Positions 1 through 46,461 of a stretch of 64,000 bases of DNA are shown here, one piece after another. A model generated the notes under the pieces. The model was not told where the DNA came from and did no database searches. It was given only the letters and a program-made list of their open reading frames with translations. Origin of the DNA: Lytechinus pictus (Eukaryota); NCBI RefSeq assembly GCF_037042905.1, contig NC_087245.1, forward strand, positions 1,240,001 through 1,304,000, in the 5' to 3' direction. Position numbers and translations under genes: made by a program. Position 1 is the stretch's first letter; every line of letters begins with the position of its first letter.

Positions 1-158
1 AAATCATCAATTTGGGTGAACTTTGAAGTTCTATAGCAAAAAATCAAGCACATGGACCTATATTAATTTTTGCATATTTCGAATATTAAGGTTCTAAAGT
101 ATCTATGTGCAAAGTTTGGTGAAAATGACATGGATTTCACTTTAACTGTGGAACGTCC
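1..158. mobile_element. Right end of a TTAA-flanked non-autonomous DNA transposon (Kolobok-like)
   Basis: Ends ...GTGGAACGTCC-TTAA; a homologous end recurs at ~7862-7995, also ending in TTAA. Confidence 0.55.
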
Positions 159-2851: not shown

Positions 2852-3185
2852 TCAAAGACGGGCAAGATCTGCTTCTGTAGAGATGACAAGTGTTACTGTC
2901 TTGCCACCACTTGCTTTAACTTGGGCAAAGATTCTTCCATCATAGGTCCATGCATTAACAACATTGTTGTTAGTCATCTTCACACTTTTGTAGACTTTAC
3001 GGTACAGCGATTGATTTTTCATAGTCAGGTCTTCTTGTATAGATATGCGTGATCCTTTCAACTTTCTGCGTGATGAAATGACCTGCTTTTTAACACGATA
3101 GCTACAGAACTTAACTATCAGTGCGCGATGTTTTCCTGGATCTGGATCCGTCTTTCCTACGTGATGAAATCTTCAGCTTTTAGTT
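2852..3185 (-). pseudogene. LINE ORF1 C-terminal remnant belonging to the adjacent element
   Basis: IVKF...KLKGSRISIQEDLT...AWTYDGRIF resembles CR1/L2 ORF1 proteins; same strand and directly upstream of ORF2. Confidence 0.7.
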
Positions 3186-4295
3186 CTGCCTGAAAGTATG
3201 ATGACAACAAATTCATCATATAAATAGCTTTTTTCATCCTTGCTTGTAATCGTACACAGCATCTCGGTCCGCCTCGCCGGGTTCAGAGATAATATATATA
3301 TACGTGAGGATGGGATATGCATCCAACATTTCCAACAGTTTTTTTTTATCATTATAATAACATAAAGGCAATTAAGAAGATGAAATCCTGTGACACAAAC
3401 GAGTCAGGCCACATTGGTTAATTTGGTGTGTGTTTTTTCATCCTTCAAAATGACAAAAGTCTGACATTTTGATAAATCCTTACAGTGGCGGACCGTGACA
3501 CGGAGAGACAAAGCGTTGGAGGAATGGAGGGGCACAGCATTGTTCACAAACAATACAGTGCCCCTCCAATCAATTGTCTCCTCCGGGTCACGGTCCGCCA
3601 CTGAATCCTTATATTGGTCGGCTATTATCTTGGTATTCAAAATAGTCCTTGGGTTACATGCAGCCTATATGCTTAGAATGACATCATTATTGTATGACGA
3701 TTTACATTCTTTACATAAAAAGTACGTCGTATATTTACGAATCATTCGGATTTCCCGTCAGTTAGATTTCAAAATGGCCGCCAAAACAACATTTATTTTA
3801 TCCTTATTATATATTACATTTCCCTTTGCCCATAATTGATTTTTTTCCTTCTGTATATCCATAATATTGGGGCAGGGGGGGGGGTTGTTCTGTGACTGCT
3901 TTGGACAGTAATCTATATCTATTGTGAATAAATCAAATATTGGGTGATGCATTTGTTAATACAAGATATATAGAGGGGGTGAGAGGGGGCGGACAGAGAA
4001 AGAGAGAGTGGGAATCCAATATACACTCCACGTACAATGTACAATTTTAGTCAGATTACAAAAAGTTTGTGTATTATAAATACAACATATTTATTGTTCC
4101 TTACAAATTCAGCAGCAATCACCTAAGGATAATAATTGATGTTAATTGTCTCTTCTGCGATCCAATTTAATTTCCAATAAATGCAATTGAGCTATATTGC
4201 ACATATTATTCAGGTAAATTGGATGTGGTTCCGTGTGTTACTAGGAATAGGATTTCTCCAGACTCTATTGGGTTCGTTAAGTGAATGTATATATA

Positions 4296-7860: not shown

Positions 7861-8119
7861 GCTCTATAGAAAAAAATCAAGCACATGAACCCATGGTAAT
7901 TCTTGCATATTTCAAATATTCAGGTTCTAAAGGGTTTTTTTGCAAAGCTTGGTGAAAATGACATGGATTTCACTGTAACTGTGGAACGTCCTTAACTTTT
8001 TAAAATAGCAATATTTTGTGAAAACAGTTTATGTGCATTTTGTCATGAATATTGATTAGGTGGTTTGGTGATGAAATGTCCCCTCTTTCTTTTTTCTTAT
8101 GTTAGAAAGTCAAAAAGGG

Positions 8120-8158
8120 GCCTAAGCTTTCGATCCTAGCAGAATCTTCGTCGGAGGC
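8120..8158 (-). ncRNA. Minimal type-I hammerhead ribozyme (variant core CCGACGA)
   Basis: Minus strand reads GCCU-CCGACGA-A-GAUUCU(GCU)AGGAUC-GAA-AGCU-U-AGGC: 4-bp stem I, 6-bp stem II, palindromic minimal stem III. Confidence 0.75.
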
Positions 8159-9083
8159 AAAATGACAAACATATAAAGTGGAACAACCATAATATAGACC
8201 ACAAACAAGCTACAGCAACACTAGAAATAAGGAGACAAAAGGGGCATTAGTGAGTAGAGAAGACCAATCAGGTTAGTGAAGGGGATGAAAGAAAAGGAGT
8301 AGGCAGACACAAAGGGAAGTTAGTGTAAGTAAGGCCAGTAAAAGACCTCAAGCCAAGAGGGATTAAGATAATGAGGCAGGCAACATCAAACAGGATCTGG
8401 AACAAAACAGTGATAGAGGGATGAATAACAAGAGAATTAGTGAGAGGTGGGTCAAACAGGTTACAAAGAAAGGCATAATAAACTGGTGCATAAGAGTGGG
8501 GGGGGGGGGGAAAGGAAAAGAATGGGGAACAACTGATAATGTGCAAAAGACATATAAGTATATATGATAAAGCATTAAACAAACTAAGAGAAGAAGGTAA
8601 GTGTAAATATGTATCTACAAGTGATATGTATATAAATATATCAACAAAAAAAAGAAATGTATATGAAAAATATAAATACACATATATGGTGTAACTGATA
8701 TTGTAATCCGCTAGGTGTGACGGGAAAAAAACATAAGACTATATAGTAGGAAAAAAAAAAAAAAACTGTATATATATGTGAAAAAGAGGAAGCAAATTGC
8801 CTAAAAAGGTAAAAGCAAATATAGAAGAGAGGGGGTGTATTATGAAGAAACCATAGTATACATGTAAATAAGCAAATGTGGTAAATCTAAAAGAGGTGAG
8901 TGGAGAAAAAAAATATATATATAATCATTATTATATCGCCTGAATAAGGAAGGAAAAATTGGAGCTGAGCTTGTATGAGATATGGGAGGAAAGTAGAGGA
9001 AGAAACTATAATGTTACTATTCAAAAGAGCTGAGGGGAAAAATTATATGTATATATAAATTGAAAGTGGATAGGAAAGAATAA

Positions 9084-9848
9084 TCAGTCGTTCCCCTCTT
9101 GGATGTTCAGGCCATGAGGTTGGGTGGTGCGAAGTCGTCTCATCCAGAGTTTCTCTCTGCTAGTACGGACTGAGTCAGGACGGGCACCTAAAGATTCGAT
9201 GCCCTGCAGCATCATGTCAGTGATGGAGTGGTTGGGGAGGTTAAAATGGCGGCCAACTGGAGTGTCCAGCTTTGCTGTGTTGACGGTGGATCTGTGCCCG
9301 TAGAATCGTTTCTTGAGCGTGGTCTTGGTTTCCCCTATGTATTGTACCCTACAAACTCTGCAAGTGATGAGATATACAACATTAGTGGTAGTGCATGTGA
9401 TGTTGCCCTTGATTTGGTGAGACGGGCTGGTAGAGTTGCTGGTGAAAGTGTCGCCCTCGTGAAGGTGTATTTCACATATGATGCACCTGTTGCTGGTGCA
9501 TTTGAAGGTGCCATGCTGTATGGGAGAAGAATGGTTGGTGAGGGAGGGCACTTCAGCACGAACAATGAGTTCCCTGAGATTCGGTGGGCGTCGGTATGCT
9601 AGAAGGGGAGTATCGGGAACGGCCTGTTGGAGACGATCAGAAGTGTGTAAAATGTGGTGGTTATCACACAGGATTTTGCGGAGAGGGGGTAGATTGGGAT
9701 GGAAGGTGGTCACAAGCGGTATTCTGTCGGTAGTCTCCTTGTCACTTTTAGGTTTGAGAACTTCAGATCTGGGGAGAGAACGAACTTTGTTAATTGCCAG
9801 TTGGACTGCCCTGGCCCCGTGGCCCCTGGCACAGAGATGTTTCTGCAA
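9084..9848 (-). CDS. Penelope-like element C-terminus: RT thumb/linker, Cys knuckle and GIY-YIG endonuclease (truncated)
   Basis: RIPLVTTFHP, AYRRPPNLRELIVRA, CTSNRCIIC, NVVYLITC..C..QYIGET, RFYGH, E..W, PHGLN. Confidence 0.9.
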   Translation of the reverse strand: MQKHLCARGHGARAVQLAINKVRSLPRSEVLKPKSDKETTDRIPLVTTFHPNLPPLRKILCDNHHILHTSDRLQQAVPDTPLLAYRRPPNLRELIVRAEVPSLTNHSSPIQHGTFKCTSNRCIICEIHLHEGDTFTSNSTSPSHQIKGNITCTTTNVVYLITCRVCRVQYIGETKTTLKKRFYGHRSTVNTAKLDTPVGRHFNLPNHSITDMMLQGIESLGARPDSVRTSREKLWMRRLRTTQPHGLNIQEGND

Positions 9849-10079
9849 ATTCCATTTTCTTATGTCATTACATTATATCATAATTATTTCATATTTTCAT
9901 ATATGCGTGTACGATACGTCTCTCTGATAATAAAGTAAGTTGCAGCAATGAACATCCAATGCATTAATTTTGTTACCAATCCTTTCTTTTAATTCTCGGA
10001 GGACAAAATTCGAAGAAAAAAATCTAATCTAATATAATATAATAAAAAAAAAGTCGGGATATGATACCATCATATCCCT

Positions 10080-34324: not shown

Positions 34325-37300
34325 AGTGTCCTGATCTTGTTAATAATTTATTACGTTGATGTGAAATTAAACTTTGAATAACAAGCTCTTAAAGGTCATG
34401 TTGAAATTCACAGGAATTGATAAATGACAAGACTTCACATTAAAAAATACAGTCTCAATCTAAAAGAGATAAAGGATATTGAAAAAGCTGTTAATTTTGA
34501 GGAAGGTTATATTAAAAAGTGATGGATAGTAACTTTCTTCATGCTTTGAGGATTGATCGACTTCATTAATAAACGAATTAGTGAAGGTAGATTATTTCAA
34601 GCTGCAGCGAAAAATGTTCATCAGTCTGGAATTTTAATCGAAAAATGTGTTTTACTAAAACCCCATGTCGGAGGTGGAGCAAGCTATTTGATCGGCAATG
34701 ATCAATATCATGTCGTTATCATGATAATGAATATCTTGCAAAGAGAATTGAAGCGAAAAGTGATGTGACAGTTGAAATTGGATTGCTCATTACGCGTCCA
34801 TTTAATTAGCGTGTAATGTGCATGAGCTTGGTGATAAAGGCTATTAGCATGATTAAAACGTCATTGAATCGAACAAATGATATTTTCCTATACAACAAGA
34901 GTTGTAAATGGTAACATTATACCATAATATATCATTCCGATAAGTTGCGAGTCAATATACCCACACTGTAAAAGTCGGGATCTTAAAACTGACACCCCTG
35001 GTGTTCCTATATAGAGGACCACATCCTGAGGTCTTAAAACATGTAAAATGACACCCCAAAAAATCGAACACCAAACAGTGTGAAAATAACAACCAAAGTT
35101 TGTTTTTCTAAACCGGTAGGTGTTCAAGCATAACCTGATAATACCGAAGTTTAGCACTGCTGTTGTCATCGGTATCTGCTCGGTGTTTCAACGAATTATT
35201 GTTGTTAAATCATTGACCCTGTGATTTCATGACGATCATTTTGATCCTGTACTTAAAAAATGTATCGATGACCGTCATTTCTGCAATGAGAAGCGAGGGA
35301 CAGAGCTAAAAACTGCTTTTCGCCAAAGAAACGAGTCGAAAGACATGAGAAGAAATTTCCACAATAGATTGACGCAGGAATTCAATTTAAAATATAAAAA
35401 AAATACTCGTCTTTTTTTGTAATTATTGCACTTTATAGAAATAACAGTTTCATAAACATAACCCATTCGCAAATTTAAAGGCCATCGATTCCTGGAACTA
35501 AGAGCTTGAGGGCGTTATTGGATAAACCAAGGACTGTAACTGTCTTTGTATACGCACTGCAAGTTTACCCGGACAAAAATAGCCGGAAAAAAAATGTTTT
35601 AAAAATATATTGGTGAAGGTTTAAAGAAAATCCATCGAAGATTTCAAAATTTAATAGAATTTAAGTGAAATGTCATTTTCAAAAAAAAGAAAGGGAAAAT
35701 GGGTTTTATTGTACCTTCAGTATATCAACAAACTAATTTTTCTACATCCGCATCCGAAAGAAGAAAGTATTTAGTCATCAAGAACCACTAAAAATTAAAA
35801 TGTATGCAATTTATAGGACATTACATATTTGGCGGCTGCTCGTATATGACATAAAAAACTGAAACTTCTAATAACTTTCTTAATCTTTAATGGATTAAAA
35901 AAAAAAAAAATTCGTCGGGGTGAAATATTCTTTCAATTATTATTTTCGGCAAAGCAGTTCTGGTTTTTCTCGCTATGAATTACGATCTTGATAGAGTAAC
36001 TTTTAAAACATTTTTATTGTTATATAGCATGCAAAATATAATAATTTCTACATCTATTGCCCTGCCCTAATTATGATTTGCTGTGCAAACCCTTTATTCG
36101 GTGAAAGTTGTCTGAATATGCAGCCTATAGGGTCACTGCCTTTGACTTGTGTATAGAAGAAAAAAGCTTTATATGTGCAATAGTGTCGTGATTTCTGAAT
36201 TTTTATCGCCTAAATCTTGACGTGGTCGTGTCGATTCGCAAACTAGATAGACTTGCCCCTGAAAAGGTCAAGGAGGTAGAGCGGGTGCCTGGCCTCTACC
36301 TAGGGGAACTTCACCCTGGAAGAAAAGTTTGTTGTAAACATGATGACAAAAAAACAAACAATGGTGAAGGTTCGAGGAAAATCCATTATAATTTATTAGA
36401 ATTATTAGAATGTTAAGTTTCTGATGGGTGACGTCATATACGAGCAGCTGTCCAACGTGTTATGTAATACAAAATGCATAAATGTCATTTTTAAAATGAT
36501 TCTCGACGACTTATCTTTTTTTCTTTTTAGCATCCGATGTGAAATGATTTGTTTATTGATATACTAATGGTACAATAAGACTTATTTTCAATTATCTGAG
36601 AAAATGACATTTCACCGAATATTTTACCATACTGTATCTAAAAAGCTGCTCGCATATGACATCACTAATCAAATTCTAATAACTTTTTTATCCTTTGATG
36701 GATTTTCCTCGAACCTAAACCGATATTGTTTATTATTTTTTTCTGCTATTTCAGGGCTAACTTCTCCTTTCATCACGTTTTGGACCCTCACCCAACCAAT
36801 ACCTACTGAAGCCGCGTTTCAACAGCGACTGCATGAATACGTTAACCCCTATCTACATCAGACAAACGACATTAACCGAAGTCAAATGATTTTAATGTTT
36901 TACTGAACTTGTAGCTGCACGGAAGATTAAGTATTTACAGGCTACCGCATATTAAAATAATAATTCAAAAAAAAATCGTCGAGCACTATGGAAGCACATA
37001 AGACTGGTCCGGTTGTGATTGTAAGGCAGCCGGTCTTACCATGGTCTTACATAGTTATTGTGAACTTGATTGGGTCTGATGTTGTTTGAAGGTTTGCATG
37101 GTGGTATGTACAATCGCTGATGTGGTTTACGGTACACCATGTGTAGTGTCATAGAAACAGTGGATAGAAGAAGAGAAGAAAATGGATAGGCGAGAAAGTG
37201 GAGATTTGAGAATAGAGTATTCTTTCTTGTAAGTAGTCCTGAAAAGGACTGTAAACCAGGAAAGATTGAAGAGTTGAGAACAGCTTGAGTAGTAGAGCCG

Positions 37301-37352
37301 ATGAGGAGATGCTGGCTTGAGTAGGCGAGTAGAGATGATGAGTAGTAGAGAG

Positions 37353-37393
37353 ACTCGACGTTTCGGGCAGGTTGACTGTCCGTCTTCAGGAGT
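37353..37393 (-). ncRNA. Minimal type-I hammerhead ribozyme, canonical core
   Basis: Minus strand reads ACUC-CUGAAGA-C-GGACAG(UCAAC)CUGCCC-GAA-ACGU-C-GAGU: CUGANGA and GAAA boxes, GUC cleavage triplet, 4-bp stem I. Confidence 0.9.
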
Positions 37394-37593
37394 GTTTGCA
37401 TGGTGGTATGTACAATCGCTGATGTGGTTTACGGTACACCATGTGTAGTGTCATAGAAACAGTGGATAGAAGAAGAGAAGAAAATGGATAGGCGAGAAAG
37501 TGGAGATTTGAGAATAGAGTATTCTTTCTTGTAAGTAGTCCTGAAAAGGACTGTAAACCAGGAAAGATTGAAGAGTTGAGAACAGCTTGAGTG

Positions 37594-37626
37594 AGACGGA
37601 CAGTCAACCTGCCCGAAACGTCGAGT
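37594..37626 (+). ncRNA. 5'-truncated copy of the same hammerhead (CUGA lost at the inversion junction)
   Basis: AGACGGACAGTCAACCTGCCCGAAACGTCGAGT is identical to the 3' part of the intact motif. Confidence 0.75.
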
Positions 37627-38913
37627 CTCTCTATTACTCATCATCTCTACTCGCCTACTCAAGCCAGCATCTCCTCATCGGCTCTACTACTCAAGCTGTT
37701 CTCAACTCTTCAATCTTTCCTGGTTTACAGTCCTTTTCAGGACTACTTACAAGAAAGAATACTCTATTCTCAAATCTCCACTTTCTCGCCTATCCATTTT
37801 CTTCTCTTCTTCTATCCACTGTTTCTATGACACTACACATGGTGTACCGTAAACCACATCAGCGATTGATTGGGTCTGTACACGCGATAATCGCTTTTGA
37901 ACCAGCCCCCCCCCCCACAAAAAATTAAAAAAAATAAATAAAAAAATAAAATTTGAAAAAGATACTTGTTCCTGTCTCTGTATGTCGTCAACAAAATTCC
38001 TCTCTTATCAGTCACTATACCGACTGTTTATTTTTGCAAAATCATATAATGTATATATCTTTCTGCCCCGGGCCTGGTCGTTATCTCTCCATTAGATTTA
38101 TCTTGCTCTTTTTCTAGAAGAGAACAATATTTAGCTTTTCTCCAGAACTCAGACCTGTAATGCCAAACGGTCGCATCAAAGAAATCGGTTGTTAATCGTA
38201 ATAAATTTTGTAGGTCGGGGACCAGTCTTACAAAGAGTTGCCATTGATCCGATCAACCACTACGATGGAACTCCAGGAACATCAACTTCTAAAATGCATG
38301 TTTCTTCAAAAAAAATCTAGACATGTATATTCATATATTCGTATTTTCTTGAAAATTTAGTGTGCTTTTCTTTTTTAACATAGGACAAAAATTTGCAAAA
38401 AAAAGAGCAAAATTCCTTTATTTTTTTTTGGCTTGTCAAGATTTTCCTCCGAAAAATTTGCCCCCCCCCCATTTGGAAAATCCTGGATCCGCCCCTGGCG
38501 TAATAATTATCATGGTTATCCGCTTCCTTTGGAGCTTTAAGTGAAACTCCATTAACAATATTCTATGAACTCAAGGGTGGAGTATACCCTTCTATGTACT
38601 CCAATACATATAATGGCTAAAATGTCATTTTCCCCAAAAAGTTTTATTTCAAATTAATTTTCTTGCAACTTGTTGCCAATTTGAAATCTACATGGTCTTA
38701 GCATGGTCTTAGTTATCTCAATTTATAAGCAGCTATAACTTTCTTATTGCCTGTCGGATTTCTTTCAAACGTTCATCATTCTGTTTAATCTATTTTTCTC
38801 CTTCCCAAAATAACATTTTATAGCCAAGGCAGGATTCCCCTTTAATTATTGCTCTCATGCATAACAGGCGACATAGGCCTAGATTCGTCTATTTTCTTTT
38901 AATCTGTCATTGT

Positions 38914-45737: not shown

Positions 45738-46368
45738 TTATTCAGGTATAAAACGATGTGGGTACATTTCATTATAGCTATCCACACACTGAGCTATTAT
45801 ACGGACGATATCTTGGGTTAGATTTTGAGGAAGCGGTTGAGGGTCTGTCTGTGCAAATCCTGAGCTCTCGTAAGCTCGCTTAAAAGTCTGTGACTGTGAC
45901 ATTCTTTCGTTAGTATGTGCATCGGGGCAGCCATTTCTCCAGGACTTGATAACATCTGTGGATGCATCCCATTCTAGGAGTCCATCTCGATACTCAACAT
46001 CCATTACCTCACATATCTTCTTGATGAATGGTTTTGGGTTGGCCAAGAAGTCTTCAGTATCAATGATCAATGGGTTTATTCCTACGTTGGTGAAGTGCTT
46101 CCATAAGGCATGCATCTCCCCAAACCAGTGATGAGTTGGATACGTAGGGTGAACCTTCTCAAGGTCGGCGTCGGGTGGTAGATCGACTATATTTTTCATG
46201 ACCATTTTCCTAAACGACGATATCACCCTTGTTGGATCCCTGATCACTAAGATATGTCTATATCCCTTAGGAATGTAATCGTAAGAATCATAGCTTGCCA
46301 CAGCCATCTCTTTGACAACGACAGTACGTCTTTCAGAATCCTCAAGGGCATTCCTCACACCTCCATAT
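45738..46368 (-). CDS. Sulfotransferase-like P-loop protein, coding exon 2
   Basis: TTTGCAG acceptor, phase 2 (AC|A = Thr); VVKEM, ILVIRDP..VISSF, IIDTEDFLANP and LLEW motifs; ends in TAA. Confidence 0.85.
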
Positions 46369-46461
46369 CTGCAAAGTAACCAGAACAAGAATAGCATTTT
46401 CAACATCTTATTCCAATTTCTAATGTTTCAATTTTGATTTTATCCATGGTATTAAATGGAC

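Follow-up and report, generated by a model that had tools for sequence, protein, structure and literature searches.

Penelope-like elements (PLEs) are characterised, in the available part of PMC8557442, by truncation at the 5' end, partial tandem repeats, an inverted copy next to the element, a tail of 30-40 bp at one end and a hammerhead motif (HHR) in their pseudo-LTRs (pLTRs). For a lizard PLE studied in vitro it was established that both strands are cleaved and extended and that two adjacent internal start sites of reverse transcription give rise to the tail, and it was observed that HHR mutants still insert and that RNA-seq ends are absent at the HHR site (PMC11167929). Minimal HHR motifs are, in the portion of PMC4209133 at hand, mostly single or, in pairs, located on opposite strands, and the accessible sections of PMC7229834 set these minimal variants apart from the HHRs of retrozymes.

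Here we describe an insert at positions 37066-37878 of the window (the whole stretch of DNA that was analysed, 64,000 nucleotides), which an earlier reading made from the sequence alone had taken for a retrozyme-like element. The insert is a real and young tandem-plus-inverted copy of the tail end of a PLE, an element of a kind that is already known. Very probably it represents a single, dead-on-arrival insertion of an endonuclease-positive (EN+) PLE, consisting only of the terminal 315-nt HHR-bearing pseudo-LTR piece.

Layout of the insert

The terminal unit is numbered S1-S315 on the minus strand, S1 being the 5' edge of the HHR and S315 the 3' end of the element. The insert is composed of the following pieces:

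37066-37078, no strand: left copy of the TSD, TTGATTGGGTCTG, an exact 13-mer that recurs at 37866-37878
37079-37393, minus strand: complete terminal unit S1-S315 (PLE pseudo-LTR end), running from the HHR 5' edge to the element 3' end
37079-37110, minus strand: tail, a 32-nt 3' extension of the unit that the inverted arm lacks (S283 against S315)
37235-37250, minus strand: short hairpin AGTCC-TGAAAA-GGACT, kept between diverged subfamilies and recurring in both further copies of the unit within the insert
37353-37393, minus strand: sole complete minimal (PLE-type) hammerhead of the insert, assigned by sequence reading, MFE fold and the criteria in the available part of PMC4209133
37394-37592, minus strand: second, incomplete unit of the tandem (S104-S302), 100% identical to 37092-37290 (blastn placement)
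37593, no strand: single-base filler that separates the tandem part from the inverted arm
37594-37868, plus strand: tail-less inverted arm S9-S283, a 275-nt inverted repeat (S9-282 by blastn)
37866-37878, no strand: right copy of the TSD, its first 3 nt shared with the end of the inverted arm

At this level the observations of the sequence-only reading were borne out. The 302-bp period corresponds to a direct repeat of 199 nt (37092-37290 and 37394-37592, 100% identity, spacing 302), the inverted third copy to 275 nt of the minus-strand unit repeated on the plus strand (37111-37385 versus 37594-37868, 1 mismatch), and the single substitution between copies to 37345 G / 37634 T, which was found by reading the sequence (the repeat program rounds the match to 100%) and of which the form at 37634, in the inverted arm, is derived. 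The two copies of TTGATTGGGTCTG are identical and offset by 800 bp as described; the true duplication measures 10-13 bp, because the first 3 nt of the right copy overlap the end of the inverted arm. The locus is indeed non-coding. The open frames of 130 and 118 aa in the window copy matched no Pfam family. The copy holds no PLE ORF but only the terminal 315-nt piece, the tail of which includes the start codon of the PLE ORF (ATG at 37099-37097, minus strand, placed from the autonomous element described below).

The partial second unit lacks both the HHR and the final 13 nt of the tail, and the tandem junction that it forms with the first unit (S302 to S1, spanning 37380-37403) is unique in the genome. 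Tandem Repeats Finder reported no repeat for the insert, merely ~1.66 units being present, and the flanks of the insert showed no useful repeats within the window. The unit end ATGTTGTTTGAAG is common to 15 of the 17 copies displayed (other loci and the window), the other two varying in the first letters. The hairpin at 37235-37250 lies within a near-invariant block, TACAGTCCTTTTC.GGACT, in an alignment of the reference with six units of ~68-83% identity. Histone3 matches from Rfam (E = 0.069) correspond to this hairpin and carry no histone signal, and the matches to MIR5048 (E = 7e-9) and MIR529 (E = 1e-5) are artefacts of the long inverted repeat, far under the gathering scores.

The autonomous element and its family

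One locus in the same genome, L031, is a full-length copy with an open frame of 903 aa, in which we found RVT_1 (E = 8.4e-12) and GIY-YIG (PF01541, residues 690-800, 25.8 bits with a cutoff of 22.6, E = 1.3e-5). A scan of the whole L031 protein at E <= 0.01 did not report the GIY-YIG domain. L031 is flanked by its own 13-bp TSD, CAAGTCTGCATTA, and comes with a partial pLTR upstream as well as a 5'-truncated copy in inverted orientation. Its frame is closest, among named proteins, to uncharacterised sea urchin RT proteins (81-93% identity), and in at least two genomic copies the full-length frame is uninterrupted. The three pieces of the insert match the L031 end at 98.2-99.0% (98.7% over 317 aligned positions for 37079-37393 against reference positions 2879-3194). 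The short HHR unit has not diverged from the end of the autonomous element. By sequence, the insert is the 3' terminus of an autonomous element with RT and GIY-YIG in the same genome. The proposal of a recent insertion by Penelope-type machinery was upheld, whereas that of a separate retrozyme family built on 302-nt monomers was not, the supposed monomer sharing 98-99% identity with the last 315 nt of the PLE.

The anatomy of the family was derived from 40 loci picked solely by an exact HHR 36-mer, 34 of which were at least 85% identical and together provided 61 arms. The 5' ends of the arms lie at S-5..9, that is at the HHR edge, in 46 of the 61, and the 3' ends fall at two sites ~35 nt apart (25 at S311-315 and 25 at S275-288, with 11 elsewhere). 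Inverted arms are found in 22 of the 34 loci (our own tally) and a TSD of 10-15 bp in 17, the other 17 having no clear TSD by a simple script. The two 3' sites, the 5' ends at the HHR edge and the 10-15-bp TSDs make up the signature published for insertions of PLEs (PMC8557442, PMC11167929). The insert shows the usual anatomy of its family: a TSD of 10-15 bp, an S315 arm, an inverted S283 arm and a head-to-head meeting near the HHR 5' edge.

Genome-wide, exact or near-exact patterns in 812 Mb gave 503 HHR-bearing copies and 71 native body-to-HHR junctions. The standard partial-tandem junction, from tail to body, occurs 6 times, and the window-type S302-to-S1 junction once, in the window itself. 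Head-to-head HHR pairs with a spacer of at most 30 nt number 21, which served as positive control for the gapped pattern search, and five of these share an identical junction, read as S1 joined to S2. Same-strand HHR pairs at a distance of 286-346 bp were absent genome-wide (0 with exact 16-mers). Of the points that the sequence-only reading had proposed for a genome-wide check, many copies and linkage to RT/GIY-YIG (via L031) were found and tandem arrays were not. About 80-85% of the unit copies are unattached to an ORF. That reading had also held that, with all other copies attached to Penelope ORFs, the insert would be a detached pseudo-LTR, and in the spirit of this test a detached pseudo-LTR is what it is.

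The long near-perfect inverted repeat could also mark a DNA transposon of the fold-back or MITE-like kind, bounded by long terminal inverted repeats, or be an artefact of assembling a palindromic repeat, given that PLE structures are known to trouble assemblies (the available part of PMC8557442). We consider this extremely improbable: the arms are asymmetric with a one-sided tail, TSDs within the family range from 10 to 15 bp in length, the sequence is that of a retroelement 3' end, and the same architecture is repeated at many loci, which lie on different contigs and have different flanks.

A further explanation, in which a rearrangement after integration, such as replication slippage or a local duplication, added the 199-bp piece to a plain solo or inverted PLE, would make the period unrelated to reverse transcription. 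It would agree with the uniqueness of the S302-to-S1 junction and with a short homology, seen by eye, between CCATGCAAAC at the end of the unit and CCAAGCGAAC, which natively precedes the HHR. Identity across the duplicated 199 nt is, however, 100%, and the entire composite lies inside one TSD. Moreover, small same-strand duplications of other kinds occur at the arm junctions of further loci of the family (L068, L040), as do fillers such as GAGACGGACA, and this variety points to stuttering during insertion, which leaves a later rearrangement distinctly unlikely.

For the PLE insertion that we favour, the course of events can be inferred from the anatomy of the insertions and the in vitro work on the lizard PLE (PMC11167929). 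The PLE protein would cut both target strands, and both strands would prime reverse transcription, at the two neighbouring internal start sites. One of the cDNAs would reach the RNA 5' end (S1), jump once to a second template at S302 and copy as far as S104, after which the two cDNAs would be joined head to head. The jump from S1 to S302 would produce the one-off 302-bp period; it rests on one case, since the S302-to-S1 junction, in which the last 13 nt of the tail are skipped, is non-standard. The numbers for the family (two 3' sites separated by ~35 nt, 5' ends stacked where the hammerhead begins and far more head-to-head pairs than tandems) fit the insertion model obtained in vitro for the lizard PLE, here in the genome of a distant animal, a sea urchin by the closest proteins.

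The clustering of 5' ends at S-5..S9, which are ends of DNA copies only, suggests that the main template RNA may start with the opening base of HHR helix I, and the stacked ends provide a concrete place to seek the transcription start of the element. The A of ACUCCUGAAGA corresponds to window position 37393 on the minus strand, the putative 5' end of the template. The sequence at S1, TCA(+1)CTCC, resembles an initiator motif by eye.

The hammerhead motif

The complete HHR of the insert, which the sequence-only reading had located correctly, reads on the minus strand from 37393 to 37353, in order, ACUC, CUGAAGA, C, GGACAG, UCAAC, CUGCCC, GAAAC, GUC and, behind the predicted cut between 37357 and 37356, GAGU. 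Helix I is formed by ACUC/GAGU, an unpaired C follows A9 of the core CUGAAGA, helix II (GGACAG/CUGCCC) contains an A.C mismatch at 37379/37367, and the 3' part consists of GAAA, C15.2 and G16.2-U-C17. The core boxes are present and the MFE fold of a 49-nt stretch gives exactly helices I and II, with an unremarkable energy (z = -0.25). The motif is minimal: it has no helix III loop, and helix I is closed solely by the remainder of the unit. The check with Rfam hammerhead models that had been advised gave no match, neither at the gathering threshold in the whole window nor at E <= 10 in 36900-38000, as expected for a motif without helix III hairpin. Dimer folding with ViennaRNA gave no helix III dimer; the double hammerhead is a pseudoknot there and unscorable. 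A type III topology cutting at S1 was dropped, as no complementary helix III strand was seen upstream by eye. Short pieces ending at S42-44 (L051, L059, L061 and L067) were considered as marks of the cut site and rejected, since they end 5-7 nt past the predicted cut.

We found the HHR conserved beyond neutral expectation. In a second subfamily, sampled by a query that left out the HHR and ~70% identical elsewhere in the unit, the whole motif is kept in 14 of 28 copies, and these have the same 36-nt HHR sequence, bar scattered point changes and single-base indels. Sixteen exact copies carry A-U in helix II instead of A.C, and those that can be placed are more diverged ones, ~96% identical to the window unit. 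The youngest subfamily, window included, carries the A.C mismatch, and this weakened helix II agrees with the published dispensability of cleavage for insertion (PMC11167929).

A unit that begins with an HHR and is present in 1.66 tandem copies might point to an independent, non-autonomous non-LTR retrozyme, whose 302-nt monomers would be excised by the HHR, circularised and copied in rolling-circle fashion by a Penelope-type RT. The large share of ORF-free unit copies would fit this, as would the reported derivation of animal retrozymes from PLE pLTRs (10.64898/2026.07.22.740005, in the part available). Copying from a 302-nt RNA circle was, however, not supported. The junction that defines the period has a single genome match and is located at the HHR 5' edge, 37 nt from the cleavage site; since it is not at the GUC site, ribozyme cleavage and ligation cannot have formed it. 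The 13-nt end of the tail falls outside the supposed circle, and no same-strand HHR pairs occur at the corresponding distance. The locus contains one complete HHR, as the second tandem unit stops short and the inverted copy begins within the CUGA box (at AGACGG, lacking C3-A6), so that no monomer could be excised from a transcript. The motif is moreover of the minimal PLE type, whereas retrozymes are defined, in the available part of PMC7229834, by an HHR of canonical type I that has loop contacts.

Reads were compared with the flank plus first unit only, using three RNA runs (X11-X13) and DNA contigs (X1), and depth on the unique flank (36700-37059) was zero in all of them. The RNA runs, with a depth of ~160-225 from reads that are 95-99% alike and seemingly unstranded and that leave the flank uncovered, showed no pile-up of molecule ends at 37356/37357. 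The back-joint from 37393 to 37092 expected for a 302-nt circle was absent among the 15 listed of 30 joints in this ordinary RNA-seq, again with the flank uncovered, which may also speak against a retrozyme. The retrozyme reading is largely refuted by the genome counts, and we regard it as very improbable. As far as the sequences tell, the PLE RNA carries the HHR as a conserved passenger or feature, and neither self-cleavage nor a role of cleavage or circles is indicated.

It is conceivable, though unlikely, that the HHR acts mainly as a dimerisation module at the RNA 5' end rather than as a nuclease, and that it thereby keeps a pair of template RNAs head to head within a dimeric RT-endonuclease complex. 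The HHR would complete helix III only with a second copy, via the ACGU palindrome, and with both target strands primed the cDNAs would meet at the hammerheads. If true, such a role would account for the weak catalysis of metazoan PLE HHRs as well as for the inverted head-to-head insertions that are typical of PLEs.

For annotation, the PLE insertion is of little consequence, being one further truncated copy among hundreds in the genome. It does serve as a worked example that a tandem period with a hammerhead does not equal a retrozyme, and that genome-wide junction counts settle the question quickly.

Comparison with known systems

The motif resembles the minimal HHRs in the available part of PMC4209133 in its CUGANGA, GAAA and GUC boxes, a nucleotide left unpaired between A9 and 10.1, the pairing of G10.1 with C11.1, a helix II that is long (6 bp) and a helix I that is short (4 bp), the lack of a helix III loop (the palindromic ACGU permitting a dimeric helix III only) and its occurrence chiefly as single motifs or opposite-strand pairs. 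It differs from them, within the same limits, in the A.C mismatch in helix II of the youngest subfamily, to which the window belongs, and it is a predicted motif.

With animal non-LTR retrozymes, as presented in the parts available of PMC7229834 and of a 2026 preprint (10.64898/2026.07.22.740005), the unit shares a length of ~300 nt, the non-coding HHR-bearing character, the relation to PLE pLTRs and the presumed mobilisation by PLE proteins. Unlike in those retrozymes, there are no tandem arrays and no second HHR on the same strand, the HHR is minimal and lacks helix III and the loop 1-loop 2 contacts of canonical type I, and the unit is undiverged from the end of the autonomous element.

In the lizard PLE (PMC11167929) the ORF begins within the HHR, whereas here the HHR is located ~260-295 nt upstream of the start codon. 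The closest likeness is to EN+ PLEs (Penelope/Poseidon-type organisation) in general, which is a likeness by features. As in these elements, so far as the available descriptions go, RT is combined with a C-terminal GIY-YIG in one ORF (L031), the ORF starts within the pLTR end, the pLTR arises from a partial tandem with an adjacent inverted 5'-truncated copy in one TSD (window and L031), a tail of ~32-35 bp is present at one end (in the window S315 at the left and S283 at the right), and 5' truncation is heavy with a variable TSD length. The window copy is unlike them in that it is without any ORF.

In twin priming of LINE-1, both target strands prime cDNA, which leads to an inverted 5' part inside one TSD. 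The family described here is like LINE-1 in that cDNA would be primed on both target strands. It is unlike LINE-1 in that the PLE arms start at specific internal RT start sites of a PLE RNA and usually span one and the same sequence, which gives a palindrome and not an inversion of contiguous sequence.

Structure and source of the insertion

The insertion at 37066-37878 consists of pieces of one terminal unit, numbered from the 5' edge of its hammerhead (S1) to the 3' end of the element (S315), between two copies of a target-site duplication (TSD).

Pieces of the insertion (window positions)
37066-37078, left TSD copy, TTGATTGGGTCTG
37079-37393, minus strand, complete unit, S1-S315 (S1 is the A of ACUCCUGAAGA, S315 the final base of the element)
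37393-37353, minus strand, hammerhead motif, ACUC / CUGAAGA / C / GGACAG-UCAAC-CUGCCC / GAAA-C / G-U-C, then GAGU
37394-37592, partial second unit, S104-S302, 100% identical to 37092-37290
37593, one base of filler
37594-37868, inverted arm, S9-S283, single mismatch (37634 T versus 37345 G)
37866-37878, right TSD copy, repeating the left copy

The 302-bp spacing, the inverted copy, the one substitution between copies and the 13-bp duplication claimed in the sequence-only reading are all present. Tandem Repeats Finder called no repeat at the insertion because it holds fewer than two units, its open frames (130 and 118 aa) matched no Pfam family, and the 64-kb window contains no further copy of the family. 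The right flank is rich in A/C homopolymers. The nearest recognisable coding piece, about 8 kb away, is an open frame at 45738-46427 (minus strand) that matches sulfotransferase families (PF19798, E = 1.5e-6; PF13469, E = 3e-6) and probably represents a host-gene exon. The 2-kb bin 8001-10000 lies far off the rest of the window in GC skew (0.306) and AT skew (0.13).

When the genome was searched with the monomer of 302 nt, 58 matches were scored out of 1192 first-look candidates, with identities of 90-100%. The plus-strand left end of 17 copies, namely that of the window and those at 16 other loci, was always (G)ATGTTGTTTGAAG or a close variant, and on the opposite side 8 of the 17 continue into a common sequence. 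The full-length reference copy L031, flanked by a 13-bp TSD (CAAGTCTGCATTA), comprises a 5'-truncated inverted copy, a partial upstream pseudo-LTR (pLTR, S66-S315), a 903-aa open frame that starts at an ATG some 20 nt from the end of the pLTR and contains RVT_1 (E = 8.4e-12) and GIY-YIG (25.8 bits, exceeding the cutoff), and S1-S315 after the frame. Identity between the window pieces and the end of L031 is 98.2-99.0%, and we conclude that the unit is the terminal piece of an autonomous Penelope-like element (PLE). Of the proposals made from the sequence, those of a recent insertion, of a hammerhead and of Penelope machinery are borne out. Among named proteins, RT proteins of sea urchins come closest (81-93% identity); other PLE families of the same genome share 54% and 38% protein identity, and uninterrupted full-length frames occur in at least two genomic copies. 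Judged by these sequences, the parent element is apparently young.

Insertion signature and proposed mechanism

Forty loci were selected solely by the exact hammerhead 36-mer; six were less than 85% identical to the reference, and the remaining 34 comprised 61 arms. Arm 5' ends fell at S-5 to S9 in 46 of the 61, more than 20 nt into the body (the element upstream of the hammerhead) in five and further inside the unit in ten, while 3' ends fell at S311-315 in 25, at S275-288 in 25, at S30-50 in eight and elsewhere in three. Arms on both strands were present at 22/34 loci (hand tally), and a clear TSD of 10-15 bp at 17/34. The window insertion, with S315 on the left, S283 on the right and a 13-bp TSD, is a typical family member, its sole oddity being the additional partial unit between the arms; other kinds of small same-strand stutter were found at two loci (L068 and L040) and as fillers at head-to-head junctions.

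From sequence identity, end distributions and junction counts we infer the following steps. The PLE protein would nick both target strands about 10-13 bp apart, with priming on RNA at S315 for one strand and at about S283 for the other. The first cDNA would run to the RNA 5' end (S1), jump once to S302 of another template and stop at S104; the second would run up to S9, after which both cDNAs would be joined. That 5' ends pile up at S1, five independent head-to-head junctions read as S1|S2 among them, argues for a template RNA with a discrete 5' end. The native sequence at S1, TCA(+1)CTCC, fits the initiator consensus, and transcription may start there. Pieces of 280-315 nt, the dominant form in the genome, would result from initiation at the first pair of RT sites if the upstream pLTR's S1 were the start of full-length RNA.

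Subfamilies otherwise about 70% identical keep in common a hairpin, AGTCC-TGAAAA-GGACT (37235-37250, again at 37537-37552 and in the inverted copy), and, close to the 3' end, the blocks ACACATGGTG.ACCGTAAACC and CCACCATGCAAACCT; these are candidates for an RT-binding or initiation signal. In L031 (5145-5175 and 5455-5482), the 15 nt that precede the hammerhead (CCAAGCGAACACTCA) are similar to the 3' end of the element itself (CCATGCAAACCTTCA), and the body sequence following them resembles the unit start in antisense; an old, diverged tandem copy of the pLTR unit may make up the region upstream of it.

Other arrangements were found elsewhere. Two copies (L012 and L026) are truncated 10 nt upstream of the hammerhead, followed by a (TGT)n microsatellite and then a common flank; the cause is either insertion into a repeat that bears a microsatellite or a segmental duplication. 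A preference of PLEs for microsatellites has been reported (PMC8557442). A large tandem/inverted PLE complex at G000:C10:11884867-11903402 holds seven matches to the ORF of a different PLE family (54-58% protein identity, 2826-bp spacing); four lie on one strand, three on the opposite one, and they meet head-to-head at 5'-truncated copies. At another locus (L104 496-1314; G000:C2:4958195-4959013), a tandem array of 12 copies (68-bp period, 97% matches) was amplified from the GCTTGAGTAG-rich stretch directly after a second-subfamily PLE hammerhead; its unit lacks the hammerhead, and it exemplifies a PLE pLTR piece turned into a minisatellite.

The hammerhead motif

The computed fold of the 49-nt hammerhead stretch gives exactly helix I (4 bp) and helix II (6 positions, one A.C), with an energy not better than that of shuffles (z = -0.25). 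The Rfam hammerhead scan proposed from the sequence found no match at the gathering score nor at E <= 10, as expected for a motif without a helix III hairpin; A15.1-C15.2-G16.2-U16.1 form a loopless palindrome, ACGU. In a second PLE subfamily, only about 70% identical outside the hammerhead and sampled with a query leaving the hammerhead out, 14/28 copies retain the whole motif as the same 36-nt sequence barring scattered point changes and single-base indels. The motif is conserved between subfamilies.

Helix II is backed by the variant 37367 G>A, which replaces the A.C mismatch with A-U. This A-U state is the majority in the RNA and DNA runs of one organism (three RNA-seq runs, one DNA contig set) and has 16 exact copies in this genome. 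Four of five placed A-U copies share only about 96% identity with the window unit, and two of these lie on either side of a full-length copy with three stops in its ORF match; they look older than the 99-100% copies. The A.C version occurs in at least 100 copies, and the weaker helix II is therefore found in the lineage now most successful.

RNA circles, retrozymes and known elements

The proposal of an independent retrozyme or RNA circle is not supported. The tandem junction of the window, S302 joined to S1 (<= 2 mismatches), was found once genome-wide, in the window itself, against 71 native body-to-hammerhead junctions, six standard tail-to-body tandem junctions (the tail being the 3' extension at one end of an insertion) and 503 hammerhead 36-mers (<= 3 mismatches). 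A genome-wide gapped search found no same-strand hammerhead pairs at 286-316 or 316-346 bp spacing and 21 head-to-head pairs with a spacer of <= 30 nt. By these counts there is no 302-nt retrozyme family in this genome; the genome-wide monomer search proposed earlier turned up many copies and the linkage to RT and GIY-YIG (L031). The tandem junction of the insertion is at the hammerhead 5' edge, 37 nt from the GUC cut site, and was therefore not formed by cleavage and ligation; the last 13 nt of the element also fall outside the supposed circle. The partial unit lacks the motif and the inverted arm starts at AGACGG, so that with a single complete hammerhead a monomer is not excisable.

Three RNA-seq runs and the DNA contig set of one organism were mapped to 36700-37393. 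None of the four gave any depth on the unique flank, and they are therefore uninformative on the locus itself. Per RNA run, 362-460 reads mapped to the unit, on both strands and mostly 95-99% alike, running into heterogeneous flanks (loose-end agreement about 0.5). With reads of this similarity and a flank at zero depth, no pile-up of read ends was seen in the RNA runs at the predicted cut (37356/37357), and a 302-nt back-joint was absent among the 15 joints listed (15 more exist). As weak evidence, the RNA reads lend no support to efficient cleavage or circles.

The insertion is of a known kind, the observation being confirmed and its interpretation partly supported. Purified lizard PLE protein cuts and extends both target strands, reverse transcription begins at two neighbouring sites inside the RNA, set apart by the length of the tail, insertion is normal with hammerhead core mutants, and no RNA-seq reads start or end at the cut site (Frangieh et al., PMC11167929). 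Li et al. (preprint 10.64898/2026.07.22.740005) propose that retrozymes originated from PLE terminal repeats by local tandem amplification, and Cervera and de la Pena 2020 (PMC7229834) separate the minimal hammerheads of PLEs from the canonical type I motifs that tandem retrozymes carry. Minimal hammerheads were defined in pLTRs of metazoan PLEs by Cervera and De la Pena (PMC4209133). These lack helix III and have a long helix II, a 4-5-bp helix I, an unpaired base following A9, G10.1-C11.1, a palindromic 15.2-16.2 and low in-vitro activity in dimers only; the window motif agrees with all structural features listed there. Craig et al. (PMC8557442) describe heavy 5' truncation, partial tandems that give pLTRs, an adjacent inverted copy with 5' truncation, a tail of 30-40 bp that is often present at just one end, and pLTRs carrying hammerheads, and the insertion signature of the present family is exactly as described there.
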